The notes beneath the pieces are model-generated. The model was not told the DNA's origin and searched no databases. It worked only from the letters and a program-made list of their open reading frames with translations. A program made the position numbers and the translations under genes. From the sequence record MT768059.1: DNA of 52,782 nucleotides. The stretch is one strand, 5' to 3'. How positions within the stretch are numbered: the stretch's first letter is position 1; every line of letters begins with the position of its first letter. Origin of the DNA: Escherichia phage vB_EcoM_swi3. Positions 3,451-47,210 of this stretch are shown one piece after another.

Positions 3451-3753
3451 TCACTTCGCGCTTGCGTTTTCAACGGCTTGTACAACTTTCAACAAATGCC
3501 TGAAGTCATCATGATAGATTTCATTAAAGCCATCTGCCGCAAAGTTTTCGCCAATTAAGATCAGTCTTTCGCGGACCAAGTCAATCAATAGTTTATTGTC
3601 AGTTATTTCCGCACCTGTAACAAGTTCAACAAATAATTGCTGTACGTTATCGCAACGGATGTTACTTTCAATACACACTTGGCGCATGTCTTCAACTATT
3701 GACATGATTGTGACTTGCATTTCTACGTCAGAAGTGATGTTATTCAGTTTCAT
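3451..3753 (-). CDS. hypothetical small acidic protein
   Basis: 100 aa, about 17 D/E vs 9 K/R; first gene of leftward array next to control region. Confidence 0.45.
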   Translation of the reverse strand: MKLNNITSDVEMQVTIMSIVEDMRQVCIESNIRCDNVQQLFVELVTGAEITDNKLLIDLVRERLILIGENFAADGFNEIYHDDFRHLLKVVQAVENASAK

Positions 3754-3953
3754 AATAGTTACCTTTGTACTAGTTTCCAGGTGTGACTACTGTTACCAAT
3801 AGTCACTAGTTGAAACTACTACTTGTGTTACTATCAACAAGAAACATGTTACCAAATTGTTAAAGAGCAAAAGGTACCATTGACATCTACCAGATGTACC
3901 TGTTGACTGGTTAAGTACTACCTACCTAATCTAAACCATACCAATATCCTTTA

Positions 3954-3970
3954 GACCAGTTAGACTGGTC
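3954..3970. promoter_or_regulatory. perfect palindrome GACCAGT-TAG-ACTGGTC (putative operator)
   Basis: 7-bp arms with 3-bp spacer read directly; half-site GACTGGT recurs at 3905..3911. Confidence 0.4.
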
Positions 3971-4138
3971 AATCAGTCATCACATTCAATAAATATATAA
4001 TAGACCAATCGCTATTGATTGTACATAAAAGAATTGCAAGTTTATGCAAGTTTTTAGAAATGATAATCACTTGCGATTGATAGTGGTTCTCATATACAAT
4101 TGATATAGTTTCACATGTAATTATTCAACTCAAAATGG

Positions 4139-4370
4139 TCGGCAGGGGTTATAATAACATAGGGGTGCCACTTAAAGGAGCCGGCGAAATTATTTCTAAA
4201 AATATAATTTCAATCTGAATTATAGACGCTTTGTACTATAACGGCCGAAGTAGTTCACACGGTAATTGTACCAATCATAATAGTTACCAGAGTAATCATT
4301 TCAATTGAAATAGGTGCGGCGGGGGGTAATTTCGCAGGGGTGCTACCTGCCAGGAGCCAGCGGAATTTTT
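4139..4370. repeat. two copies of a ~57-bp GC-rich element, period ~176 bp
   Basis: 4139..4196 and 4315..4370 share GyCGGCrGGGG ... AGGGGTGCyAC ... AGGAGCCrGCGrAATT; flanked by AT-rich DNA. Confidence 0.5.
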
Positions 4371-4588
4371 TTATTTTTTGGTATTTTCTCCTTATCAGGA
4401 CCAATCATCATCAGAGTGATACGACAGGAGCTAACCTTTTGCCTAACACAATAATAAGTGAAGCCCCTCTAAAATTTTTTTATATTTTTCGGAAATTGTG
4501 TAGACACTCACTAAAAAGTGGTGTACTTTCTCTCCTCCACGCGCTATCATTAATGTGAATCATCAAACGGCCTCACGGTCTCCTACTT

Positions 4589-5086
4589 GTGGGTAACATT
4601 ATGAAAATTGTTCAATTAGAGCCATATCCGCCTCAATTGGCTATCGTTTGCAGCGAAAAAGAGCACGAAGAGCTCCAAAAACTGATGGATTTGCCTGATT
4701 TTGGCAACTGGAATGACCGAGAAACACGTACTGCATCTACCTTTACGTTCTCTCGCGTTAATTATCCGTACCTGTTAATTGTCGTCGAACTGTACCACCC
4801 GGACGACCTGAAGTACAACACCATTTCCCACGAAGGCATTCACGTAATGTCGTCGCTGATGAACTATGTTGGCCTTAAATACGACCCAGAAAACGATGAA
4901 TGGTACGCATATCAGCATGATTTCATCGTAAATGCCATTTGTAAGGCCCATGACGAGTACATTGAGCGCCAAAAAACGCCAAAAACTAAGCCAAAAATCG
5001 AAACAGGTAACCATCCTGCAATACTGCCACAAGACGTTATGAACTCGCTTTTGACTGACACTACTGGGGACTTTTTAGGTGATTAA
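4589..5086 (+). CDS. hypothetical protein with HExxH motif (possible small zinc metallopeptidase)
   Basis: 165 aa; motif ISHEGIHV; first gene of rightward block. Confidence 0.4.
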   Translation: MGNIMKIVQLEPYPPQLAIVCSEKEHEELQKLMDLPDFGNWNDRETRTASTFTFSRVNYPYLLIVVELYHPDDLKYNTISHEGIHVMSSLMNYVGLKYDPENDEWYAYQHDFIVNAICKAHDEYIERQKTPKTKPKIETGNHPAILPQDVMNSLLTDTTGDFLGD

Positions 5087-5753
5087 TATTATCTTTGCAA
5101 TGGGCCAAAATGGGGAATTCGGGTTATCTCCGGAGTTTATGAAGCATCAGGTTGACTCGTGCAAGACCATGGAAGAGGTTCGTGCACTTCCTAAATCGGG
5201 TCTACCCTGGAAATGTCAGTCAGACATGCTCTTTTTCAGGACTATGACTAATTCAATTGCGACAGAACCAGGCTATAATGCATATCAGCAACTACGTGGA
5301 CAATTCCCAAATGACCAGTTGCGAAACATGATAGCAGATGTAACGGTAAAAATGGTCGGACATAGTGTATTGTTAGCCGGTCGTAAAACGTATATGACTA
5401 TGAGTCTGCCTATGTCAGCCCACAGAATACTGCTGCCGGTATCTCGCCAGATTATGGCTTCAGAAGGCTACAATAATCTGGGTGAGATGGCCGCAGACCT
5501 TGAGTCCAGAGGTACTGACGTCTGGATTGTAGGGGGTGCCGAGTTGATACTTTCGGCCCTTGAAGAACACGCAAAAGACTTACTCCGTATCGACAACATG
5601 TTTATCAGTACGATCAAGCAATCAGGTCCAAGTGATATTTTAATGGATTGTAGCAAATTAATGATGTACATTGATAGCGACTTCACTTATAATGATGAAT
5701 ATGTTGATAACAAACAAGTGCTGATACAACGCTACAGGAGTTTACACAAATGA
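5079..5753 (+). CDS. dihydrofolate reductase-like protein
   Basis: 224 aa; LPW, GRKTY and VGGAEL blocks match DHFR conserved blocks (compare E. coli FolA, T4 Frd), with insertions; GTG start. Confidence 0.65.
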   Translation: MINIIFAMGQNGEFGLSPEFMKHQVDSCKTMEEVRALPKSGLPWKCQSDMLFFRTMTNSIATEPGYNAYQQLRGQFPNDQLRNMIADVTVKMVGHSVLLAGRKTYMTMSLPMSAHRILLPVSRQIMASEGYNNLGEMAADLESRGTDVWIVGGAELILSALEEHAKDLLRIDNMFISTIKQSGPSDILMDCSKLMMYIDSDFTYNDEYVDNKQVLIQRYRSLHK

Positions 5754-6256
5754 ACATCATAATCGAGGGGCCCGACAATGCTGGTAAAAGTACACTTATT
5801 GAGTTCCTTAAATCTCGTACTGGCCGCGATGTTATTCATAATACTGTTGATAAAGACCCCGAATCGGTCATGGCTAAACAGGCCAAAGAAAACGCGTTGG
5901 AAGGCAATTGCATTTATGACCGTAGCGCTGTTATATCTGAGTATATCTATTGTCTGGTTCTTCAACGTACGCCTGTCATCAATATTAATGTATCACATGT
6001 AGCAGATATGTGTGACAACGCCATCGTTATCTTTTGTATGCCACCTGTTGAAAAGGTACTGGCAACTACAAAAGACGAGATGCCTGGTGTTGTGGAAAAT
6101 CTTGAGGCGTTATACAATCAGTATGACAACCTCATTGACGAGCTGGTTATGATGAGTAAGCAGTTCTTCATTTACGACTGGACTGTTGAAGAAGACGGTC
6201 CTGAAGCAGTTCTCGAATATATCAACGAACGTATTAATAAGGAGTGGAACAAATGA
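5750..6256 (+). CDS. thymidylate kinase-like dNMP kinase
   Basis: 168 aa; P-loop IIIEGPDNAGKST and YDRS motif as in Tmk (IVIEGLEGAGKTT / DRH). Confidence 0.7.
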   Translation: MNIIIEGPDNAGKSTLIEFLKSRTGRDVIHNTVDKDPESVMAKQAKENALEGNCIYDRSAVISEYIYCLVLQRTPVININVSHVADMCDNAIVIFCMPPVEKVLATTKDEMPGVVENLEALYNQYDNLIDELVMMSKQFFIYDWTVEEDGPEAVLEYINERINKEWNK

Positions 6257-6972
6257 GCCCAGTATACAATACCTCAGTCACGCTGTCCGCAACCGTAGGG
6301 GACGTCAACAAGACAGTTACTGTGGGTTCAACTAACCCAAACCTGTCAGGTGAAGACCTGCTGCGCCTGGCCAAACGTGCTCTTGAAGATAATGAAGTGA
6401 CTGGTACTGAAGGCGTCAGCATTGAAATTAACGTCGAAGGATGTCCACACAGCATCAGTATTGCTACCTCTTCATTGCCGGATGATGAAACTCGTGAACA
6501 GCTGGAAACCAAAAAGTTCAACGATGAGCTGGAATATCGTACTGGTGAGATGTTCAGCAGTGCGTTAAACTGGTACTTGTGCAAGGCCTCGGGTTATACT
6601 GGTGCTCCTATGTCAGACCGCATGTTAGCTGATATGTCAGCTCGCGAAATTGCTAAAGGCTGGGCACATGTACAGATGCTGCAGGAGCATATCTGCAAAC
6701 TGGAAAGCTGCAATAAAGATGCGTCTGAGCTTATCACTGCCTATAAGCGACAGATTAACGACCTGCAGCAGTTGATGGGCAAACGTGCTGAAGAGTACGA
6801 GGCTGAGATTCGTAGCCTTAATGGTACAGCTGTTGCTAATAACCGTGCTTTCAGCGAAGAGCGTAAAGCGCTTATTGCCCAGCGTGACGCTGAAAAACGT
6901 CGTGCAGACGACCTGGCAGACCGTCTCAACTTTATCCGTAAGCATATGGATGCTATGGAAGGGGTAATCTGA
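6253..6972 (+). CDS. hypothetical protein with coiled-coil C-terminus
   Basis: ORF; start uncertain (6244 or 6253). Confidence 0.45.
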   Translation: MSPVYNTSVTLSATVGDVNKTVTVGSTNPNLSGEDLLRLAKRALEDNEVTGTEGVSIEINVEGCPHSISIATSSLPDDETREQLETKKFNDELEYRTGEMFSSALNWYLCKASGYTGAPMSDRMLADMSAREIAKGWAHVQMLQEHICKLESCNKDASELITAYKRQINDLQQLMGKRAEEYEAEIRSLNGTAVANNRAFSEERKALIAQRDAEKRRADDLADRLNFIRKHMDAMEGVI

Positions 6973-7262
6973 TGGACCTGTTCGATATGGTCGAACATCC
7001 TGAAGTAAACGGCTTGGCGGAAGCTAAGCCGTTTAGCTGGGATGAATTCGTAGCAGGCAAACCTGCTGTAACCCACAACGGGCAGATTGCATATTACGGA
7101 GGCCATAGCGAACATCCGATGTGCACTCACCTGTACAACGCTATCACAACCATATCCGACGAAAACGTTATTAAGTACGGAAAAGAGGTAATGCCTTTTC
7201 TTGTAGATGAACGCGGTTACTTCGAAGGTAAATGGTTCCCGTTTCTGGTAGAAATGGCCTAA
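6972..7262 (+). CDS. hypothetical protein
   Basis: 96-aa ORF, ATGA overlap with upstream gene. Confidence 0.45.
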   Translation: MDLFDMVEHPEVNGLAEAKPFSWDEFVAGKPAVTHNGQIAYYGGHSEHPMCTHLYNAITTISDENVIKYGKEVMPFLVDERGYFEGKWFPFLVEMA

Positions 7263-7378
7263 AAACCGGATAAATATAAAGGCGTCTAAGCTAGTTCTTC
7301 ATCTATATAAGCTACTTATTCGCCTTTCTACTGTAGACTTTCTCATCATCTCTCTAGACACTTCATTTTTATATTCTG

Positions 7379-7407
7379 TTTACTTACTTCGCGTAACTCG
7401 TTATAAT
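7379..7407 (+). promoter_or_regulatory. sigma70-like promoter TTTACT-N17-TATAAT(cc)
   Basis: Read directly; upstream of terminase small-subunit candidate. Confidence 0.5.
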
Positions 7408-7439
7408 CCCGACTATCCGGATTAACGAGGACGATACCC

Positions 7440-7730
7440 ATGGCAAAACCGAAAAAAACCCGTGAGGCAACAGAAGAGCTGTTGGCCACGATGCGACGTA
7501 TCCAACTGGACCCGTTGGAAGTTATGCAACGGGCTATCATACTTGCTGAACGTGAAGACGACTACAAAGCGATGATGGATGGTGCACTGGGCGTTATGCC
7601 GTACATGTATCCTAAACTGAAAGAATCCGTTGTCAAAGCAGACATCGACCAGAACCTGTCTGGTAATGGTGTCAACCTGAACATTACAATAGGCGACCAG
7701 AAAGTGGTAGATACTACTGGGGAAGAGTAA
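7440..7730 (+). CDS. putative terminase small subunit
   Basis: 96 aa, immediately upstream of terminase large subunit; position-based. Confidence 0.45.
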   Translation: MAKPKKTREATEELLATMRRIQLDPLEVMQRAIILAEREDDYKAMMDGALGVMPYMYPKLKESVVKADIDQNLSGNGVNLNITIGDQKVVDTTGEE

Positions 7731-7733
7731 TAA

Positions 7734-9182
7734 ATGAATCTTGACTTTCACCTGCATGACAGACAAGGTGCCGCTCTGCAGTCTCAGGCAACTGAGATTC
7801 TATACGGTGGTGCTGCTGGTGGTGGTAAGTCTCACCTTATGCGTGTAATGTCAATTATCATGTGCTGCATGATACCTGACTTGCAGATTTACCTTTTCCG
7901 CCGAAACTATAACGACCTTACGGCTAACCATATGGTTGGTCCCACAAGTTATCCTGCCTTGCTGGACGGTATGTGCAAAGCTGGCAAGTGCAAGATTAAC
8001 TACTCGAGCAACACGATTAAATTCTGGAACGGTGCGAACATCAAGCTCTGCCACCTCCAGTACGAAAAAGATATTTATACATACCAGGGTGCGGAGATTC
8101 ACGTTCTGCTGATGGATGAGCTTACTCACTTCACAGAAACGATGTACCGCTTCTTGCGTAACCGTGTCCGACTCGGTGCTCTCAAAGTCCCTGAGAACTT
8201 TTTCCGGCCACTGCCACTCATCTTTTGTGGGTCAAACCCCGGTGGGGTTGGTCACAACTGGGTTAAGCGCACTTTTGTAACTGCTGCTCCTCCGATGAAA
8301 ATCGTTAAGCAGGAAAAACGCGAAGGCGGTATGGCGCGTCAGTACATTCCGGCTAAGATGACTGATAACCCTACGCTGATGGAAAACGACCCTGACTACG
8401 GTGACCGTCTTGAAGGTCTTGGTGACCCGGCTCTTGTTGCTGCGATGAAAGAGGGTGACTGGGATATTGTTGCTGGTGGTGCGCTTGACGACGTATGGTC
8501 AACCAAGTGTATTCTGCCGCGTATGCGTATTCCGAAAGGCTGGACTATCGAACGTTCTCTCGACTGGGGGTCTACTCACCCGTTCTCTGTTGGTATCTGG
8601 GCTATTGCAAATGGTGCCTCGCTTACAGACGACGAAGGCAATGAGTACTTTATTCCGCGTGGTTCAATTATACGTATAGCTGAATGGTATGGGTGCTCTG
8701 AAAAAGAAGCTAACAGGGGTATTAAATTATCTGCTGCCGAAGTCGCTCAAGGTATTATTCGTCTACAGGAAAATCTGCAGGCTGGTGGCTGGATTCAAAG
8801 CAACGTTAATCCTGGTCCGGCAGATAGTCAGATTTATGCGTGCAAGGAAAAAGACGTCGAGACTATCGCGAAGAAAATGGAAGACGAAGGCGTAACCTGG
8901 GTCAAGGCCGACAAGTCGCAAGGTTCGAGAATAAATGGCTTAGAGCTATTCCGTCAGCTTCTGAAAAATGTTAAGATGGACGAAACGGAAAAGCCGGGCA
9001 TTTATTTCATGGAAAACTGTCCAGCAGCCATAAACACGTTGCCGGTTCTGCCGCGTGACAAGAACAACACGGAAGATGTCGACACGAACTCTGAAGACCA
9101 CGTATACGATGATTGTCGTTACATGGTGTTGCGTGGCATCAACCGTTATACTACCAAGCTCAAAATAAATATGGGACGGTAA
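7734..9182 (+). CDS. terL: terminase large subunit
   Basis: 482 aa; Walker A-like LYGGAAGGGKSH, Walker B-like LLMDELTH, C-terminal nuclease-sized domain. Confidence 0.8.
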   Translation: MNLDFHLHDRQGAALQSQATEILYGGAAGGGKSHLMRVMSIIMCCMIPDLQIYLFRRNYNDLTANHMVGPTSYPALLDGMCKAGKCKINYSSNTIKFWNGANIKLCHLQYEKDIYTYQGAEIHVLLMDELTHFTETMYRFLRNRVRLGALKVPENFFRPLPLIFCGSNPGGVGHNWVKRTFVTAAPPMKIVKQEKREGGMARQYIPAKMTDNPTLMENDPDYGDRLEGLGDPALVAAMKEGDWDIVAGGALDDVWSTKCILPRMRIPKGWTIERSLDWGSTHPFSVGIWAIANGASLTDDEGNEYFIPRGSIIRIAEWYGCSEKEANRGIKLSAAEVAQGIIRLQENLQAGGWIQSNVNPGPADSQIYACKEKDVETIAKKMEDEGVTWVKADKSQGSRINGLELFRQLLKNVKMDETEKPGIYFMENCPAAINTLPVLPRDKNNTEDVDTNSEDHVYDDCRYMVLRGINRYTTKLKINMGR

Positions 9183-9183
9183 A

Positions 9184-10746
9184 ATGTCGATAACCCCAAG
9201 CAGCACGCCGAACGTCGGATACCAGCGTCCTGAGCTGACTAAGAACGCTGGTAAGTACCGAATGATTAAGGACTGCATCGAGGGTCAGGAAGCTGTTAAA
9301 GCACGCGGTGATTTCTACTTGCCCCGACCTGACCCTACGAACTGCACAGAAGAAAACCTGATGCGGTACAATTCGTACCTGCGTCGCGCTGTGTTCTATA
9401 ACGTACTACAGCGAACTCTTTCGGGTATGACTGGCCTGGTATTCCAGCAGCAGCCTGAGATGCTGATGCCTGACGATATGGAAGTGCTGAAAGTAAATAT
9501 CGACGGTGCAGGCATTGGCGCTATTCAGCAAATGCGTAAGTGCTTCAAGTCTGTTCTGGCTTTTGGTCGCGCAGGTCTGCTGACTGACTTCCCTAAAGCA
9601 CGTATCGGTGAGTTTGGCGAGTCCATTGGCTTTACACGTAAAGAGCTGATGGATGGAGATGTACAGCCGACAGTAACGCTGTATATGCCATGGCAGATTA
9701 TAAACTGGCGGGAAGAGTATCGCAACGGTAAAGTGATGCTCACTCAGGTTGTCATTTGCGAACAGATACCGGGGGTTACTGATGGCTTTCAGCAAGACTA
9801 CACACCCGTGTGGCGTCACCTTTACCTGGATGAAGAAGGCAATTGCAACCAGTCTTTGTGGGTCAATAAGGGCGACAAGAATGCGCAGAACGTCTCCGGT
9901 GGTGCGTTGTATGTCACGCAAGAAAATGTTGTCTTACGCGACTCCAACGGCTTACCGCTGAAGTTTATTCCGTTCCAGTTTATTGGTTCTGAAACAAACA
10001 GCGCTGAGATTGACCCTCCGCCGATGTACGACTTAGCTGTGCTTAATATTGCACACTACCGTAACTCTGCTGACTACGAAGAGTCATGCTTCGTAACAGG
10101 TCAACCCACAGTATGGGCGTCTGGACTTACTGAGGCATGGGTTGAAGATGTTCTGAAGGGTGAATTGCGACTCGGTTCGTTTGGTGGTATTCCGCTGCCG
10201 GCTAACGCCGCTGTAGGTATTATCCAGACCAACCCTAACACCCAGCCGTTTGAAGCGATGAAGCAAAAAGAAGCACAGATGATTGCAATCGGTGCTCGTC
10301 TGATTCGTGAGAATGGTAAGGTAGAACGACGCGAAGTTGAGATTAAGAATGAAGCGGCGTCTGAAGCTTCGCTTATCGTAACTGTTGCGCAGAACGTTGA
10401 AGCTGCTTATCGTAAGGCAATCGAATGGTGTGGCCTGTTCTACGGACACCCTAAAGAAGAAATTACGATTAACCTCAGCTACAACTTCATCTATAGCCAG
10501 TTGACTTATCAAGAACGTCAGCAGCTGGTTAACGAATGGATTGCCGGTGCTATCACGTTTAGTGAAATGCGTAGCAATCTTAAACAAGCTGGCATTGCTA
10601 AGCTCACCGATGAAGAAGCCAAGAAGCTAATTGACGAAGAGCTGGCTGAACGCGATGCGCGTGAGGTAGCAAAAGAAGCAGAAAAGAACGCTCAAGCAGC
10701 TAAGAACAGCGATGGGCAGGAAAATAATCCAGAAAAAACTGAATAA
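9184..10746 (+). CDS. portal protein
   Basis: 520 aa directly after terL; size and position typical. Confidence 0.6.
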   Translation: MSITPSSTPNVGYQRPELTKNAGKYRMIKDCIEGQEAVKARGDFYLPRPDPTNCTEENLMRYNSYLRRAVFYNVLQRTLSGMTGLVFQQQPEMLMPDDMEVLKVNIDGAGIGAIQQMRKCFKSVLAFGRAGLLTDFPKARIGEFGESIGFTRKELMDGDVQPTVTLYMPWQIINWREEYRNGKVMLTQVVICEQIPGVTDGFQQDYTPVWRHLYLDEEGNCNQSLWVNKGDKNAQNVSGGALYVTQENVVLRDSNGLPLKFIPFQFIGSETNSAEIDPPPMYDLAVLNIAHYRNSADYEESCFVTGQPTVWASGLTEAWVEDVLKGELRLGSFGGIPLPANAAVGIIQTNPNTQPFEAMKQKEAQMIAIGARLIRENGKVERREVEIKNEAASEASLIVTVAQNVEAAYRKAIEWCGLFYGHPKEEITINLSYNFIYSQLTYQERQQLVNEWIAGAITFSEMRSNLKQAGIAKLTDEEAKKLIDEELAERDAREVAKEAEKNAQAAKNSDGQENNPEKTE

Positions 10747-10751
10747 AGCTA

Positions 10752-10780
10752 TTTACTTTCGGTTTACCTGGCTATATAAT
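10752..10780 (+). promoter_or_regulatory. sigma70-like promoter TTTACT-N17-TATAAT(cc)
   Basis: Read directly; followed by long structured leader. Confidence 0.5.
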
Positions 10781-10923
10781 CCTTCATGTCAACCGCGCAA
10801 CAGCCGGCCACGAGAGTCTGCAGGGCTCAGTGGATTTCGGATGGCTGGCTGCGCGGTTTGACCCAAACCTGTTCGGAGCCCACTTGAGTGGATTGAGCCC
10901 CTCTCATATAGGATTGTAAAATT

Positions 10924-37541: not shown

Positions 37542-38426
37542 TTATACGGCCATTTGGAGTTTGATGTTTGGCATTGGTTTGTACTTCTCAACCATTGGCG
37601 TAACATCGGCAGGAGTGAAGTCAAACACTGACACGTCATAAATTGCATTAATGTCAGGACGACCTTCAAAGTTAGTGTCCAGTGTAGTATCAGAATTGCT
37701 TACGATACGTTGCAGGAAAATCTTTGCCGCATCGATATGATTCTGATAGATGTGATAATCACCCAGCGTAACAGTCATATCACCTACCCCAGTACCCAGC
37801 TCAGCAGCAATGGTAATCTGCAACATCTGATGCAACAGAATATCGTGAGGCAGACCAAGGATAACATCCGCGCTACGCATGTGGAACATCAGCTCTAATT
37901 CATTACGGTTGTTAATGAACAGCTGAAAACCATGGTAACAAGGCGGAAGGGCCATGGCGTCCATCTCTTGTGGGTTCCATGCCGTAATGTATGCCCGGCG
38001 GTCAGTAGGCTTAACCTTCAGCGTTTCAATAACGTCTTTAAGCTGGTTAGTAAGAACACCATTCTTATAGAATGGCTTAATCCATTGCACGCCGTACACA
38101 GGACCTAAGTCACGATTGTCTGGTGTACCCCAACGTTTGTTTGCATCCTGCAGGTTACCTTCCCACCAGTTGCAGCCAAAGCCTTTGAGTGTGTCGACGT
38201 TTGAAATGCCGTTGATAAAGCAGTAAAGCTCAGCAGCAACAGCTTTGATGTTAACAGGTTTAAATACCGGCACCATCAGTTTGTTGTCGTTAAAAGCCAG
38301 CTTAAACGCTGTACCAAAACAACGGCGTGTACCAACACCTGTACGGTCTACAACATCCTCGCCTTTACGCAGGATAAAAGAAATGATGTCGCTGTAAAGA
38401 GAATCGACAGTGCTGTATGTTTTCAT
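37542..38426 (-). CDS. thymidylate synthase-family enzyme with Asp at uracil-specifying position (putative dCMP C5-hydroxymethylase or -methyltransferase)
   Basis: 294 aa; DRTGVGT, DLGPVYG, catalytic-Cys motif ALPPCY, RSADVILGLPHD, GDYHIYQNH; ThyA N177 equivalent is D195 (codon at 37842..37844). Confidence 0.8.
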   Translation of the reverse strand: MKTYSTVDSLYSDIISFILRKGEDVVDRTGVGTRRCFGTAFKLAFNDNKLMVPVFKPVNIKAVAAELYCFINGISNVDTLKGFGCNWWEGNLQDANKRWGTPDNRDLGPVYGVQWIKPFYKNGVLTNQLKDVIETLKVKPTDRRAYITAWNPQEMDAMALPPCYHGFQLFINNRNELELMFHMRSADVILGLPHDILLHQMLQITIAAELGTGVGDMTVTLGDYHIYQNHIDAAKIFLQRIVSNSDTTLDTNFEGRPDINAIYDVSVFDFTPADVTPMVEKYKPMPNIKLQMAV

Positions 38427-39019
38427 TAAAACAGTTCCTTTTGAGCCGGGTTAACGTGTGCGTCGATGATGGCCTGGATGTCAGGTGCTTTCCATCCTTC
38501 AGGCTTAACAATATCCTGACCAGACTTATGCTTGCTGTTGCTTGCATCAGGCTTAGCGCGTTCTTTCGCCATGTTAGCAGCCTGTACAGCATCCCATGCT
38601 GCGTCAAGTGGCCAGTTGTTGTTTGCACACCAGGTAATCAGGTGGATAATTAACTGGGCCAGACGGTCGCAATGAGTGTCTTCAGTATCCTTAACGTATA
38701 CAATAAGGCCATCAGCATCGAAACGGTCCATAAATCCGCATGGCGTAGTTAACAGAATAGGATACTCAAATTCGTTGGTGAACCATGCAGTCTGGTCATA
38801 CAGGTATAACGTACCTGCAGCGATGTAAATTAAATCTACAATACCGTCTAAGAATCCAGCTTTATCGCCGTCCTTCTTAGCTTGTTTAATTTCTTCCATC
38901 TCCTCAATAAGACGGTCGTAGCGAAGCTTGAACTCAGGTTTACCGCCTTGACTAACAGGCTTGAGGTCAAACTTCTCATGAAAAGCGGTAACGCCTGCAG
39001 CAATTTTACTGAATCGCAT
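38426..39019 (-). CDS. putative MazG-like (all-alpha) nucleoside triphosphate pyrophosphohydrolase
   Basis: ~197 aa from ATG at 39019 after GGAG; EExxE motif (LIEEMEEI) and downstream acidic helix (DGIVDLIY). Confidence 0.45.
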   Translation of the reverse strand: MRFSKIAAGVTAFHEKFDLKPVSQGGKPEFKLRYDRLIEEMEEIKQAKKDGDKAGFLDGIVDLIYIAAGTLYLYDQTAWFTNEFEYPILLTTPCGFMDRFDADGLIVYVKDTEDTHCDRLAQLIIHLITWCANNNWPLDAAWDAVQAANMAKERAKPDASNSKHKSGQDIVKPEGWKAPDIQAIIDAHVNPAQKELF

Positions 39020-39404
39020 TTCGTAACTCCTTACAAACAGTTTCGATAAACTTACGTTTAATTTCTGTAGACCAGATAACATGACGAGCCTGTTCTAAAG
39101 TGTCCCAACGTTCTTTACCCACAGGAAAGGGAACAATGAAAAGGCCGGTACGGGATATGCGCTTGATAAACGGGAATTTACATCGCATGGTTGTTTCAAA
39201 CTTGATAAAGTTGGTTTGCACTTCGCGTGTAAACTTGACCTTATCAAATTCATGTTCAAGAGTTTGAGCAAGGTTGCATACTTCCTGGAAAGAAGATGTG
39301 GGTAAGTAATCTTCGCGGCCGACGGTGTTCACGTAGTCGATTTGGCCTTCGAGTCGAAGTATCCAAATCCTGTAATAAGCTTCAGCAACACGTTGTAGGT
39401 TCAT
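39006..39404 (-). CDS. hypothetical protein
   Basis: 132-aa ORF downstream of promoter 39431..39459. Confidence 0.45.
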   Translation of the reverse strand: MNLQRVAEAYYRIWILRLEGQIDYVNTVGREDYLPTSSFQEVCNLAQTLEHEFDKVKFTREVQTNFIKFETTMRCKFPFIKRISRTGLFIVPFPVGKERWDTLEQARHVIWSTEIKRKFIETVCKELRNAIQ

Positions 39405-40875: not shown

Positions 40876-42532
40876 AACCGTTTCCCCAGTCGTAGTTCAT
40901 GATTTGTGGGTAGGGTCGTTTAATCCATACCTTGATGCGCTTAGGAATAGCCAGCTCACCCTTACGGCGAATAAACTCATCGCATGTTTCAGGCGGTTCT
41001 GTTCCTGCAGCATTACGCCACCAGGCATCTGCCATTTGCTTAGCATTGCCATGGGCCTCTATATTTACCCAGGTTGTATACACTTCCAGGTTTGAGTAAT
41101 ACACAACCTTTATACTGTCAGGTCGTCCCTGCTTCTGGAATAAAGAATAGTTTACCAGCGTAACATCTTTATCCACAACACGAAGCTGACCGTTAGTCAT
41201 TACCTCTTCTTCTGATGAAGTGAAGGCAATGGCAGGTCCGTTAACTGTAAACTCAAATTCATGTCCGCACATCGGATATACACCATTCTCGTCTGGCGTA
41301 CTTCCTTTAGCCGGATGCTTACATGTACGGGCTGCATAGCCACTTACCTGGTGACAGATAGGGCACTCTTTACCGCCAGGTGTTTTCTCTGACCGTTTCT
41401 TTTTCTTCTTACCAAGACGAGGTGGAACAGCCGGGTCGTCAATAGGCCCAAGGTCAATGGTGTTAGATGTAAAGTCCATAACAAGACAGTCATGCTTGCC
41501 AGGCGCTGTACGTAATCCTCGACCAAGTATCTGCACCCACAAAGCAACAGACGTGGACGGGCGCAAGATGCCGAGCATATCAATCTCAGGATAGTCAAAT
41601 CCTGTAGTCAATACGTTTACGTTTACACAGACCCGTGCTCGTCCGCTTGTAAACTCTTCCAGTGCGGCTTCACGTTCTTTCTTTGTAAGACCGCCATGCA
41701 CAACTACAGTCTGCCACCCTCGCAGATTAAATTCGTCTGCTATGTTGTGGGCGTGCTCAACACTTGTGGCAAATACAAGAACGTGGTTCCTGTCTTTACC
41801 GTAGTGCATCATCTCACGAATAGCCGCGACTGTTATACTATGCTGGTTGGCTACCTTCTCAAGCTCTGACGGGATGTAGTCACCCATCCTTTCGCCAACA
41901 TTACTGGTGTCAATCTTGGTTAACACTTTCTTGTTGACCAGGCGCGACAGGAAGCCTTCATTTACCAGTCGGGTGAATGCGTCAGGTGTTGTAAGGTCAT
42001 AGCAGATGTCGGTAAATATACCACAGTCCAGCAAGTGACCACCTGCCAGGCGATACGGAGTTGCTGTGAGTCCTGTTACCTTTACCTTAGGATTAAGCTC
42101 TTTGAAGTGAGCAATAACCTTACGGTATGTTGTTTCAGACTTCTCAGGAACAAGATGGGCTTCGTCAATGAATATAAGATTGAACTTACCTGCTTCTTCC
42201 AGGTTCTTAATAATTGACTGTACAGATGCTACAACGATACGGCCTGAAAAGTCTTTATGTCCTGCACCTGAAGAGTATATTGATACTGGTGCTTGTGGCC
42301 AGTGACGAACAATCGCTTTGGCGTCTTGTTCAACCAGCTCCTTGACATGTGTCAATATAAGAATGCGCTGACGGGGATAGCTGGTAAGAATATCCTTCAT
42401 CAGCATACCAAGCACAGGTGATTTACCTGAACCTGTCGGCATGACAATAAGTGGATTACCACTATAAGAATTGAAGTACGACCACCAGGCTGTGACCGCT
42501 TCTTGTTGATACCAGCGAGCTTCAAAAGCCAT
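40862..42532 (-). CDS. superfamily 2 DNA helicase (DEAH box)
   Basis: 556 aa; Walker A PTGSGKS, DEAH (FIDEAHLV), C-terminal Cys pairs (CPICHQ ... CKHP). Confidence 0.8.
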   Translation of the reverse strand: MAFEARWYQQEAVTAWWSYFNSYSGNPLIVMPTGSGKSPVLGMLMKDILTSYPRQRILILTHVKELVEQDAKAIVRHWPQAPVSIYSSGAGHKDFSGRIVVASVQSIIKNLEEAGKFNLIFIDEAHLVPEKSETTYRKVIAHFKELNPKVKVTGLTATPYRLAGGHLLDCGIFTDICYDLTTPDAFTRLVNEGFLSRLVNKKVLTKIDTSNVGERMGDYIPSELEKVANQHSITVAAIREMMHYGKDRNHVLVFATSVEHAHNIADEFNLRGWQTVVVHGGLTKKEREAALEEFTSGRARVCVNVNVLTTGFDYPEIDMLGILRPSTSVALWVQILGRGLRTAPGKHDCLVMDFTSNTIDLGPIDDPAVPPRLGKKKKKRSEKTPGGKECPICHQVSGYAARTCKHPAKGSTPDENGVYPMCGHEFEFTVNGPAIAFTSSEEEVMTNGQLRVVDKDVTLVNYSLFQKQGRPDSIKVVYYSNLEVYTTWVNIEAHGNAKQMADAWWRNAAGTEPPETCDEFIRRKGELAIPKRIKVWIKRPYPQIMNYDWGNGYGAR

Positions 42533-42590: not shown

Positions 42591-43469
42591 TTATTTTAAG
42601 GAAAGTTTAACGGGCTTCTCATCCTGCGGGAAGACATCAGCAGGGCGATAATCATCACAAGCTGCTAATTGCTCTTCGATTGTTTCGAGTTCTTTCTGGT
42701 GCTTGTTGCAATACCACACTTTGCCCTGAAGCGGTTTACTGTAATGGCAGGTTCTGCAGTTCCTGTCTGGCATTGCCCCTTTGTGGCACAGGTGATGGTA
42801 TTCGCACATCCCTGGTTTGCACTCCCACCAAATAGGCGATTCAGAAATCTTCGGCATATCCAAACCAGATTCCGCATATACAACAGCCTCCGCTTTACTC
42901 AGTTGTATGTCGCTTTCCAGTAAGTCAATCTCGACCACTTCAAAATACATCTCGTCAGTGTTCTTATTGATTGCAATGTACACAGCTTGATTCAGCTTAA
43001 GCTTCCGCATGTATACCTGCATCTGGGCGTAGTGTACCGGCTTACTTGCTTTAACAGACTTGAGCTTGACTAACTCCTTAAACGACTTATCGCCATGCGT
43101 CTTGAACTCAGCAAGTGCCCATACGCCTTTGTATTTAATTACACAGTCACAAGACCCAGAGAAGATGTCATTGAATTCGTGTATGCGCCACTGCTTACCA
43201 GTCTTGGGATTGACGTCCAGCACTTCGTCACATACGGTGCGAAGCCACTTTACAATTCTGCTTTCTTCAAGGTTACCACGTTCAAACAGACGAAGTTGCT
43301 TAGCCGAAAACTTCTCCTTGAACGACCAGTGCAGAACGTGCCAAAGATAGCGATAGCAGTTGTGTCCTATCTGCGATGCTCCAAGATGCCCGCGTCGTTC
43401 TTCTCTTTCGTGGGCTTCGACTATCTTGATGTCAATACGTTTCTGCAGGTCGTCAAACGGACTTGGCAT
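42591..43469 (-). CDS. PD-(D/E)XK nuclease, Cas4/RecB-like, with C-terminal Cys cluster
   Basis: Start at ATG 43469 after GGAG; motif D ... EFK (DCVIKYKGVWALAEFK); C-terminal CKPGMCEYHHLCHK ... CRTCH. Confidence 0.55.
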   Translation of the reverse strand: MPSPFDDLQKRIDIKIVEAHEREERRGHLGASQIGHNCYRYLWHVLHWSFKEKFSAKQLRLFERGNLEESRIVKWLRTVCDEVLDVNPKTGKQWRIHEFNDIFSGSCDCVIKYKGVWALAEFKTHGDKSFKELVKLKSVKASKPVHYAQMQVYMRKLKLNQAVYIAINKNTDEMYFEVVEIDLLESDIQLSKAEAVVYAESGLDMPKISESPIWWECKPGMCEYHHLCHKGAMPDRNCRTCHYSKPLQGKVWYCNKHQKELETIEEQLAACDDYRPADVFPQDEKPVKLSLK

Positions 43470-43938
43470 TGTTAAACTCCTCAACGCTGAATTCATCGTA
43501 TACAATATTATGTGCCCACAAATGGGCGACGGCATTTGCCATACTGTCTTTCCATTTGGATTGTGAAGCTGTATGAGCCAATGCAACTACCCGAACCAGG
43601 TTAAGGTTGGCTATCAGCATATCTGCACAATGTTCGCACGGCGGGTAGGTTATGTAGATGGTAACCGGGCCTAATGAAGGAGTGTCTAACTCTCTCCTTA
43701 TATTAGCTAAGGTGTTTATCTCGCTATGAATAGTTAGAGCGTTCTTAAGGCTATTAGGCACTATTCTTATAGAGTCTAACTGCGTAGGCAGACCATTATA
43801 TCCAGTGGAAATAATACGCTTGTTCTGGTCCACAAGAACGCTACCGACTTGACGTTTCGGGTCCTTCGACCAGCTCGCAACTTCACAAGCTATGCGCATA
43901 AACCGCCTGTCCCACTTGTCCATCTTCTTCTTTTGCAT
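43453..43938 (-). CDS. dCMP deaminase
   Basis: 161 aa; zinc-binding HSE and PCEHC motifs of CMP/dCMP deaminases. Confidence 0.8.
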   Translation of the reverse strand: MQKKKMDKWDRRFMRIACEVASWSKDPKRQVGSVLVDQNKRIISTGYNGLPTQLDSIRIVPNSLKNALTIHSEINTLANIRRELDTPSLGPVTIYITYPPCEHCADMLIANLNLVRVVALAHTASQSKWKDSMANAVAHLWAHNIVYDEFSVEEFNNAKSV

Positions 43939-45809: not shown

Positions 45810-46292
45810 CTATTTTACACTAACAGCTTGACACGATAGCCGTGACAAACCGAGGTTGGCTATGACACCATCGAGCAATACTCCTGCATGTTCTTCATTG
45901 TATGCTTCTACCCACAAAGGGATGGTGACGCCCTTCAGGTGGTCGCTGTACACGTTGTACCTATATACCTGTTTGTGTGCTTTGTCAACACGTACAACAG
46001 TAAGGTTACCATCCTCGTAAGGAGGAAGCTCAACGCCTTTCTTACTCCAGAAGTTACGGAACTCAGCACTATTAACAATGCCGTGTACAACACGCTCAGT
46101 AAGTTCTGTTTTGAGGTCAGCACGTGCCTTTGTACTGATAAAGAAACGACAAGAGAAGAAAGCATTGACGTTTATCACATCAACCGCATACACAACGTTA
46201 TGCTCTTCAGTAGTTGGTGCTTTATAAACAATGTATTTAGTTTTGAACAGGTCCATAGTACTCTCCAGGGAGGAAGACTGGCGGGCTTGCAC
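45810..46292 (-). CDS. hypothetical protein
   Basis: 160-aa ORF. Confidence 0.4.
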   Translation of the reverse strand: MQARQSSSLESTMDLFKTKYIVYKAPTTEEHNVVYAVDVINVNAFFSCRFFISTKARADLKTELTERVVHGIVNSAEFRNFWSKKGVELPPYEDGNLTVVRVDKAHKQVYRYNVYSDHLKGVTIPLWVEAYNEEHAGVLLDGVIANLGLSRLSCQAVSVK

Positions 46293-46304
46293 CCGCCTAA
46301 GTTA

Positions 46305-47210
46305 TTACAGCAGTTCTGCTTTCAATGCAGCGATACCATCGAGCAATGCTTTGATGTCCGGATTAGATGCCGCCAGGTCAGCAACAACTGACTGACGACG
46401 ACGTTCCAGCTCTTTCTCAACTTCCAGGTCGAGGCGTGCTGACGCTTCACGCAGTAAGTCTTCAACCTGCTGACGACGCTGATACTTGTTAAAGTCAGGC
46501 ACATCAACCAGCCATTTGAGAGTTGCAGTGTTGTAGCCAGAAGTATTGGCTGCACTTACAGACACAACATCAACGAGCTTGGTGCCATTCAGCTCCGGAT
46601 AGTTAACATTGCGAACGTCAACAACCGCTTTGTCACCTACACTTACTTTGCCGATGTACTTGTAAGTGTACACACGACCAGTCGGTTCAAACTTAACACC
46701 AACAAACTTCAGTTTGTCGTCTGCAATAACCTCTTCCTCAACTTTGAAGTTGATTGCAGTGTTCTTGACAGGTGCAGCCGCTTTGAGCTTAGCGACCATG
46801 TACTGTTCTGAATGAGACGGACGGCACAGACGGAAGACGTCCTCATTGTAGGTCAGCCAGTTACCGGTCTCATCCACGCATGCAATCTGATTAGTGCCAT
46901 CCAGTGAACGAACACCCGGGCGATTCTTCTCAATACGATACAGCTTACCTTCTTTCAGGTTAGCGTAAGAACGGCGGGCGATACCCCAGTTGTGTTTTTC
47001 AGATTCGTACTTAGCGAAACGGTCAACGCTGAAGTTCTGCTTCAGACCACGGTCGTCGATTACCCATAAGTTATCGTAAGCACCGCCGAAAGAGCCGAGG
47101 TTGGCATACACTTTGCCCTGCGTCAACAGGGAAGTGTTTCCCTCGTCAACACAGATAACAAAACCCAGAGCTTCGTGTGCTTTACCGCTGCGGTCAAATA
47201 CTGTAGTCAT
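46305..47210 (-). CDS. hypothetical protein
   Basis: 301-aa ORF with coiled-coil C-terminus. Confidence 0.5.
   Translation of the reverse strand: MTTVFDRSGKAHEALGFVICVDEGNTSLLTQGKVYANLGSFGGAYDNLWVIDDRGLKQNFSVDRFAKYESEKHNWGIARRSYANLKEGKLYRIEKNRPGVRSLDGTNQIACVDETGNWLTYNEDVFRLCRPSHSEQYMVAKLKAAAPVKNTAINFKVEEEVIADDKLKFVGVKFEPTGRVYTYKYIGKVSVGDKAVVDVRNVNYPELNGTKLVDVVSVSAANTSGYNTATLKWLVDVPDFNKYQRRQQVEDLLREASARLDLEVEKELERRRQSVVADLAASNPDIKALLDGIAALKAELL

Follow-up and report, generated by a model that had tools for sequence, protein, structure and literature searches.

Dihydrofolate reductase and small P-loop kinase genes of a Rosemountvirus as likely members of a cytosine C5-modification pathway

Introduction

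The T4 hydroxymethylcytosine pathway comprises the dCTPase gp56, the deoxycytidine monophosphate (dCMP) hydroxymethylase gp42, the deoxynucleoside monophosphate (dNMP) kinase gp1, the deaminase cd, the dihydrofolate reductase (DHFR) frd, and the thymidylate synthase (TS) td. A module of a different kind is known from phage Xp12, which has 5-methylcytosine (5mC) in place of cytosine. There, a gene annotated as "HAD hydrolase", a TS homolog, a dCMP deaminase, and DHFR lie in one operon, and phage PaMx74 carries the same set. Here, we describe a DHFR gene and an overlapping gene for a small P-loop kinase at positions 5079-6256 of Escherichia phage vB_EcoM_swi3 (MT768059.1). The whole 52,782-nucleotide (nt) stretch that was analyzed is referred to below as the window. 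An original prediction had linked both genes to a TS homolog of the cytosine type and to a pathway in which a modified dNMP is made and then phosphorylated by a phage kinase.

Published residue rules help in reading such TS homologs. The N177D substitution (E. coli ThyA numbering is used throughout) switches TS to dCMP, with 5-methyl-dCMP as the product (PMC8670742). An acidic residue at position 143 correlates with hydroxymethylases, and D169N marks 5-hydroxy-dCMP synthases (PMC13326640). Deaminases typically encoded near Asp177 TS and PRA-PH genes are reported to convert 5-methyl-dCTP to deoxythymidine triphosphate (dTTP), thereby making a canonical TS dispensable (NEB preprint 10.1101/2024.12.05.627091).

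Experimental data exist for a relative of the window phage, S144 of the sister genus Loughboroughvirus, whose TS and kinase are 73.5% and ~70% identical to those of the window. Out of nine restriction enzymes, only SspI and PacI cut S144 DNA, and the seven enzymes with C-containing sites were resisted (PMC7432712). The authors suspected cytosine modification, found no gene responsible for it, and assigned the genes for TS, Tmk, and DHFR to a route to dTTP (PMC7432712). In our literature search, these restriction data were the only measurements bearing on DNA modification in Rosemountvirus or Loughboroughvirus. Phages of these genera have been described as having no extensive nucleotide-modifying repertoires, yet they share DNA-polymerase ancestry with the family of Xp12 (PMC11946847).

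Results and Discussion

Proposed pathway and comparison with known systems

Our analysis indicates that the DHFR and kinase genes likely belong to a pathway for C5-modified deoxycytidine (dC). That the modification is specifically 5-methyl, and that the replacement pathway as a whole operates as outlined here, has about an even chance of being correct, judging from homology and from analogy to Xp12. The main uncertainty is methyl versus hydroxymethyl, with 5-hydroxymethyl-dC being less likely than 5-methyl-dC.

In the proposed scheme, DHFR and the kinase would form the rightward-encoded half of a nucleotide-modification pathway, with the leftward replication block encoding the remainder. A MazG-like pyrophosphohydrolase (38426-39082) would convert dCTP to dCMP, which the TS homolog would reductively methylate with methylene-tetrahydrofolate, yielding 5-methyl-dCMP and dihydrofolate. 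Tetrahydrofolate would be regenerated by DHFR. The kinase would phosphorylate 5-methyl-dCMP, and probably dTMP as well, to the diphosphate, from which the host nucleoside diphosphate kinase would make the triphosphate. A deaminase (43453-43938) would turn part of the 5-methyl-dC nucleotide pool into dT nucleotides, and we propose that a canonical TS is absent because the deaminase provides this supply. The outcome would be virion DNA with 5mC in place of cytosine, as in Xp12.

By homology, no component of the known 5mC module is missing from the window, which has a kinase as well. It shares with Xp12 and PaMx74 an Asp177 TS, an adjoining hydrolase of the MazG/PRA-PH type, a deaminase, DHFR, and the lack of a canonical TS. 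However, the arrangement and the proteins differ in several respects. The pathway genes of the window are split over two divergent blocks rather than forming a single operon. Its TS belongs to a separate clade that is nearer to bacterial ThyA, is 28% identical to the Xp12 enzyme, and has Leu143 and a TS C-terminus. Its DHFR is 60-70 residues longer than those of Xp12 and PaMx74 owing to two insertions, and it has a kinase related to YorR that Xp12 lacks. The window phage is an enterobacterial myovirus, unlike Xp12 and PaMx74 in both host and virion type. The proposed scheme follows the logic of T4, in that dCTP is broken down, a TS homolog modifies dCMP at C5, and the phage supplies a kinase for the modified dNMP, a deaminase, and DHFR. 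In contrast to T4, the window has no td-type TS, its TS homolog is full-length with Leu143 rather than short with an acidic residue at position 143, and no glucosyltransferases were detected in the early genes scanned.

Thymidylate synthase homolog and associated enzymes

The TS homolog is encoded on the minus strand at 37542-38426 (Pfam Thymidylat_synt, 211 bits) and is 36% identical to E. coli ThyA. The numbering of the E. coli ThyA and FolA reference sequences was checked via known residues that came out as invariant columns. Cys146, Leu143, and Asp169 are retained, Asn177 is replaced by Asp, further active-site changes are H147Y, Q165M, F176H, and Y181H, and the C-terminus is TS-like (...KLQMAV). 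This signature is common to a clade of 31 clusters sharing 50-99% identity, in which position 177 is Asp in 29 and Asn in two, and the C-terminal ...MAV is conserved in all 31. The next relatives are 89 bacterial ThyA sequences at ~37% identity, every one of them with Leu143, Asp169, and Asn177. Asp177 is likewise present in the TS of both Xp12 and PaMx74, and PaMx74 shows the same RSSDVFVGLPYD motif.

The Asp at position 177 bears out the cytosine-type assignment of the original prediction. Its statement that no second, canonical TS is present also holds: a phmmer search returned a single TS homolog in the window, and no open frame of the window contains a ThyX motif. Because Asp177, Leu143, and Asp169 can be read by the published residue rules, the enzyme is predicted to be a dCMP C5-methyltransferase that makes 5-methyl-dCMP. 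Neither the hydroxymethylase marker (acidic 143) nor the 5-hydroxylase marker (Asn169) is present. A 5-hydroxy-dCMP synthase was considered and ruled out, as position 169 is Asp rather than Asn.

The two clade members with Asn177 (P0054 and P0061) come from short contigs and keep Tyr147, Met165, His176, and His181. Reversion, an ancestral state, or sequencing error could each account for them.

Directly upstream of the TS gene, the minus-strand gene at 38426-39082 encodes a MazG/PRA-PH-type nucleoside triphosphate (NTP) pyrophosphohydrolase (Pfam PRA-PH, 31.4 bits with a cut-off of 21.3; PHROG 671), which is a predicted dCTPase. Its product matches the "hydrolase" encoded beside the TS gene in Xp12 and PaMx74, with E ~1e-8 to 1e-14 in phmmer and blastp searches. 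The genes labeled "HAD hydrolase" in Xp12 (46207-46980) and "hydrolase" in PaMx74 (41389-42126) are thus homologous to the PRA-PH/MazG-type enzyme of the window, and the HAD label on the Xp12 gene is probably wrong.

About 5 kb from the TS and pyrophosphohydrolase genes, a protein of the dCMP deaminase family is encoded on the minus strand at 43453-43938 (Pfam dCMP_cyt_deam_1, 76 bits). It is 34-36% identical to the deaminases of Xp12 and PaMx74. It is predicted to convert either 5-methyl-dC nucleotides to dT nucleotides or dCMP to dUMP.

Dihydrofolate reductase

Two plus-strand open reading frames, DHFR-like and Tmk-like with a 4-nt overlap, had been predicted at 5079-6256, and both are present there. 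DHFR (5079-5753) has 224 residues and a GTG start, and the kinase (5750-6256) has 168 residues and an ATG start. The junction reads CAAATGAACA, with the ATG at 5750-5752 overlapping the TGA at 5751-5753 as a 4-nt ATGA (5750-5753), an arrangement in which the two genes are translationally coupled. On homology grounds, these are real conserved genes rather than chance open reading frames because both have PHROG matches, 19 (DHFR) and 22 (kinase) homolog clusters, invariant catalytic residues, and a conserved adjacency. The two genes were adjacent in every relative examined. A metagenomic contig with DHFR and kinase at 42% and 51% identity has the same pair, again just upstream of TerL and portal genes. 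We hold the gene identities with high confidence.

The DHFR product aligns over its full length with PHROG 316 "dihydrofolate reductase" (E=3e-26), and Pfam DHFR_1 (PF00186) scores 29.1 bits against a curated cut-off of 25, aligning with residues 94-163 only. Its 19 homolog clusters share 42-98% identity and all fall within this phage group. Its predicted structure has the DHFR fold. In an alignment with E. coli FolA and Xp12 DHFR, residues W22, D27 (the catalytic acid), F31, T35, G43, T46, R57, and G95-G96 are identical. They correspond to W44, D49, F53, T57, G101, T104, R116, and G152-G153 in its own numbering, and are invariant in 17 homologs (42-98% identity). Folate-binding residues, the loss of which the original prediction had named as the test of its DHFR assignment, are intact along with the NADPH motif residues. 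The product of 5079-5753 is, as judged from this alignment, a DHFR with an intact catalytic core.

Relative to bacterial and phage enzymes such as FolA and T4 Frd, with which it has its fold as well as catalytic and binding residues in common, the window DHFR has two additional clade-conserved insertions. One of ~22 residues lies inside the Met20-loop region, and the other of ~38 residues follows Thr35. Both are predicted to be helical and together form four additional predicted helices. The Met20 loop governs catalysis in E. coli DHFR. Against the DHFR cores of Xp12 and PaMx74, that of the window is 32-34% identical. The GTG start is supported by the N-terminal strand MINIIFAMG, which aligns with E. 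coli MISLIAALA, and by an ATG at the same position (5079) in the colinear genome OM313460.1.

Kinase

The product of 5750-6256 matches PHROG 761 "thymidylate kinase" over its full length (E=4e-27) and displays a Tmk/dNK fold with a P-loop and a DR(Y/H) motif. Its structure was modeled with confidence, and the top fold match was YorR, followed by thymidylate and deoxynucleoside kinases. The description of this protein as a Tmk-like P-loop kinase therefore stands at the level of fold, but not as an identity: Pfam Thymidylate_kin (PF02223) reached only 16.8 bits across residues 5-50 and dNK (PF01712) only 20.9 bits, both below the cut-off of 27. With hhalign, only the P-loop aligned to E. coli Tmk (probability 58%), and substrate-binding residues are therefore not transferable from that enzyme. 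The protein is also ~40 residues shorter than members of the Tmk and dNK families.

A single-sequence search of the PDB yielded only P-loop matches, and a profile search was needed to reach YorR of B. subtilis SPβ (PDB 2axp/3kb2). YorR is the closest solved structure, being just 16% identical to the window kinase. Its PDB entries are titled "hypothetical protein" and "uncharacterized protein yorR". We know of no assigned function for YorR, and it therefore provides no substrate information.

Near relatives of the window kinase form 22 clusters with 29-98% identity and invariant catalytic residues. A full HMMER scan placed 1,647 clusters in the wider family at E<=1e-10, mostly 160-190 residues long. 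Across 134 representatives, the family signature consists of EGxDNxGKST, DR....S...Y, CxP, (R/K)xQMxGV (LID-like), Y, and YD, and the window kinase carries every position. The CxP and QMxGV motifs are not recognized Tmk motifs. Going by its sequence and structure model, the protein is a typical member of a large, biochemically uncharacterized family of ~170-residue phage kinases with a Tmk/dNK fold.

Kinase loci in distant phages

We considered which genes accompany this kinase family in 31 distant loci, consisting of 29 IMG/VR loci, Pseudomonas phage Lebethron, and Gordonia phage Mayweather (Mycobacterium phage Muddy is locus L016). A TS homolog followed the kinase in 28 of the 31, and in most of these 28, genes for an NTP pyrophosphohydrolase and for a deaminase adjoining DNA polymerase A followed it too. 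Position 177 is Asp in every one of the 28 kinase-linked TS homologs, most of which are short with Arg143; two have Asp143. The predicted tie between the kinase and a modified-dNMP pathway thus extends to every distant locus in which a TS was found. This linkage is contextual and is the strongest evidence at hand, and it suggests that the kinase family phosphorylates C5-modified dCMP.

The distant loci also allowed us to consider whether DHFR bears on methyl versus hydroxymethyl chemistry, as the original prediction had proposed. Mayweather and Muddy, whose complete genomes combine the kinase with a truncated TS resembling dCMP hydroxymethylases, have no DHFR. Conversely, Xp12 and the first 50 kb of PaMx74 contain no kinase of the YorR-like family, while DHFR is present in the TS operons of both. 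This distribution fits DHFR tracking methyl-type modules in this small sample of four genomes, which lends support to the proposal. DHFR could serve host ThyA too, as the original prediction had noted.

Several side observations concern these modules. The conserved order is helicase, YorR-like kinase, NTP pyrophosphohydrolase, a gene of unknown function, Asp177 TS homolog, deaminase, and DNA polymerase A. This order is seen in Gordonia phages, Muddy, Lebethron, and many IMG/VR contigs (e.g., L006 7971-13046 and L043 34731-37942), where the genes carry ordinary thymidylate synthase and kinase annotations; by the present reading, the module predicts that cytosine is C5-modified in these phages. 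The gene of unknown function between the pyrophosphohydrolase and TS encodes ~260-300 residues (Lebethron 10127-10915, L006 9973-10848, and L043 36046-36939). The Lebethron copy has faint TS-like similarity at 15% identity and an RS-containing motif, and the gene may be a second, degenerate TS paralog.

Alternative explanations

A number of points weigh against the 5-methyl pathway proposed above. The residue rules separating methyl from hydroxymethyl chemistry are correlative, and the Xp12 TS has Asn143 rather than Leu. The two TS clade members with Asn177 leave the other signature residues unchanged, which weakens the idea that the other clade substitutions are cytosine-specific. The substrate of the kinase cannot be read from its sequence, and its family is linked elsewhere to a truncated TS resembling dCMP hydroxymethylases while being absent from Xp12 and the first 50 kb of PaMx74. 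T4 is a phage with DHFR alongside a hydroxymethylase. Fully 5mC or 5-hydroxymethylcytosine (5hmC) DNA is a target of McrBC and McrA, and E. coli K-12 is given as the host for some relatives; therefore, an inhibitor or mcr-deficient hosts would be required. Finally, we found no chemical analysis of Rosemountvirus DNA in the searchable literature.

A 5-hydroxymethyl-dC pathway resembling that of T4, but without glucosylation or with an unrecognized further modification, would accommodate some of these points. The TS homolog would then hydroxymethylate dCMP and release tetrahydrofolate, the kinase would act on 5-hydroxymethyl-dCMP, and DHFR would only support host ThyA, fed with dUMP by the phage deaminase. 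The kinase family nearly always adjoins a short Asp177 TS resembling dCMP hydroxymethylases, T4 has frd together with gene 42, and the restriction resistance of S144 cannot tell 5mC from 5hmC. We nevertheless regard this pathway as unlikely given that the window TS has Leu143 instead of Asp or Glu and the full TS C-terminus found throughout its clade, that DHFR accompanies two known methyl-type modules and is absent from two complete hydroxymethylase-like genomes, and that a scan of early genes turned up neither a glycosyltransferase nor any other hypermodification enzyme. Less probable still is ordinary dTTP supply, in which the deaminase would make dUMP, TS would make dTMP, a true thymidylate kinase would follow, DHFR would recycle folate, and the DNA would be unmodified or modified otherwise. 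Such an account agrees with the GenBank annotations of relatives ("thymidylate synthase", "thymidylate kinase", and "dihydrofolate reductase"), with the interpretation given in the S144 paper (PMC7432712), with a TS homolog that is otherwise very TS-like, and with Asn177 in two members of its clade. It would have to explain away Asp177 and the S144 restriction data. Asp177 occurs in 29 of the 31 clade members together with H147Y, Q165M, F176H, and Y181H, while Asn is found in all 89 next-closest ThyA sequences, and experiments have established N177D as a switch to dCMP (PMC8670742). S144 DNA withstood each of the seven C-containing enzymes tested (PMC7432712), and the kinase scores below the Pfam Tmk threshold.

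The kinase itself could be something other than a dNMP kinase, with the 168-residue protein acting as a polynucleotide kinase, nucleoside kinase, or NTPase and its adjacency to DHFR being incidental. Some homologs are labeled "polynucleotide kinase" or "guanylate kinase", and we found no published activity for any family member in the literature. However, thymidylate and deoxynucleoside kinases are the fold matches next after YorR, and the DR motif and LID-like basic residue that the family conserves are in keeping with a kinase of the NMP/dNK type. Moreover, the order of kinase, NTP pyrophosphohydrolase, TS, and deaminase is kept across distant phages. We consider a function outside dNMP phosphorylation very improbable. 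With the 5-methyl pathway retained as the preferred explanation, the original prediction is partly supported as a whole: the gene identities and the cytosine-type TS hold, and the label of thymidylate kinase does not hold beyond the fold.

Significance

Rosemountvirus and Loughboroughvirus phages are widely isolated and have repeatedly been proposed for biocontrol of Salmonella and E. coli, and in current annotations their TS, DHFR, and kinase genes figure as ordinary thymidylate metabolism. Full C5 modification, if true, would account for the unexplained restriction resistance of S144 and would shift expectations of host range, as such phages would be sensitive to McrBC-type systems and would evade restriction-modification and CRISPR. 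Sequencing and cloning of these genomes would be affected as well, and a large uncharacterized kinase family would gain a testable function. A kinase beside an Asp177 TS would then point to C5-modified cytosine in numerous other phages, including Gordonia phages and the therapeutic mycobacteriophage Muddy. Retention of DHFR could serve as a genomic mark of reductive (methyl) versus non-reductive (hydroxymethyl) chemistry by TS homologs.

Gene annotations in relatives and the type of pathway, from Xp12 and T4, were already known. New here are the attribution of the pathway to these phages, an independent TS clade, a DHFR with insertions, and a contextual function for YorR-like kinases. A broader proposition is more tentative, and we would sooner expect it to fail in some part than to hold in full. 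Under this proposition, Rosemountvirus and Loughboroughvirus would fully replace cytosine with 5mC by way of a TS clade in which dCMP methylation arose separately from the Xp12 lineage, deamination of 5-methyl-dC nucleotides would be the phage route to dT nucleotides, and the 168-residue protein would be the first functionally assignable member of a modified-dCMP kinase family with more than 1,600 clusters.

Genome and gene block

The source of the window is, based on nucleotide matches, a Rosemountvirus genome. Many genomes of this genus (BP63-like Salmonella and E. coli myophages of ~52-53 kb) match region 4500-7300 at 95-99% identity, and gene order is identical in the annotated relative SPLA12. 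On the plus strand, 4589-7262 comprises five densely packed genes, with DHFR second and the kinase third. The block is flanked by a ~0.8-kb divergent intergenic region and, directly downstream, by terS-like, TerL, and portal genes. Successive junctions overlap by 8, 4, 4, and 1 nt (8 nt at 5079-5086, the DHFR/kinase ATGA described above, ATGA at 6253-6256, and TGATG at 6970-6974).

The remaining three genes of the block, all on the plus strand, are of unknown function. The first (4589-5086; PHROG 1365) has a stop that overlaps the DHFR start by 8 nt. Its product, for which a Pfam search gave no match, has an HExxH motif (S-HEGIH-V) of the kind characteristic of zinc metallopeptidases. The fourth (6253-6972; PHROG 37540) is coupled with the kinase through an ATGA overlap. 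The fifth (6972-7262; PHROG 29999) is the final gene of the coupled block, after which come the terS-like gene, TerL, and portal.

Co-transcription of the block is a reasonable inference from gene packing. Between 3400 and 7800, no terminator-like sites were found on the plus strand; there were three in all, every one on the minus strand, versus 3.0 expected from shuffling. Promoter-like matches in the same region numbered 12 versus 9.7±2.9 expected by shuffle, i.e., no excess. One such match, TGTACA-17-TATAAT, lies inside the DHFR gene at 5665-5693 on the plus strand, ~60 nt upstream of the kinase start, with overall counts being at shuffle level. An Rfam scan of 3500-7800 returned just two sub-threshold, snoRNA-like chance matches.

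Two public records deserve mention. OM313460.1 (Escherichia phage vB_EcoM_IntR) has the same length as the window (52,782) and equal gene coordinates, and the two are colinear, with 238 substitutions and no insertions or deletions across positions 4000-8000. This looks as if two sequences had been given a shared coordinate frame, for instance by reference-guided assembly. PP583539.1 is labeled "Listeria phage 220426122051" and yet is 95% identical to this enterobacterial Rosemountvirus, making its host label doubtful.

Repeats in the intergenic region at 3700-4650 were limited to short two-copy families. In the divergent intergenic region, a direct repeat of 28 nt (TCATAATAGTTACC...) has copies at 3750-3777 and 4275-4302 that are 79% identical. 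A promoter-like site at 4254-4281, TTCACA-16-CATAAT, is overlapped by the second of them.

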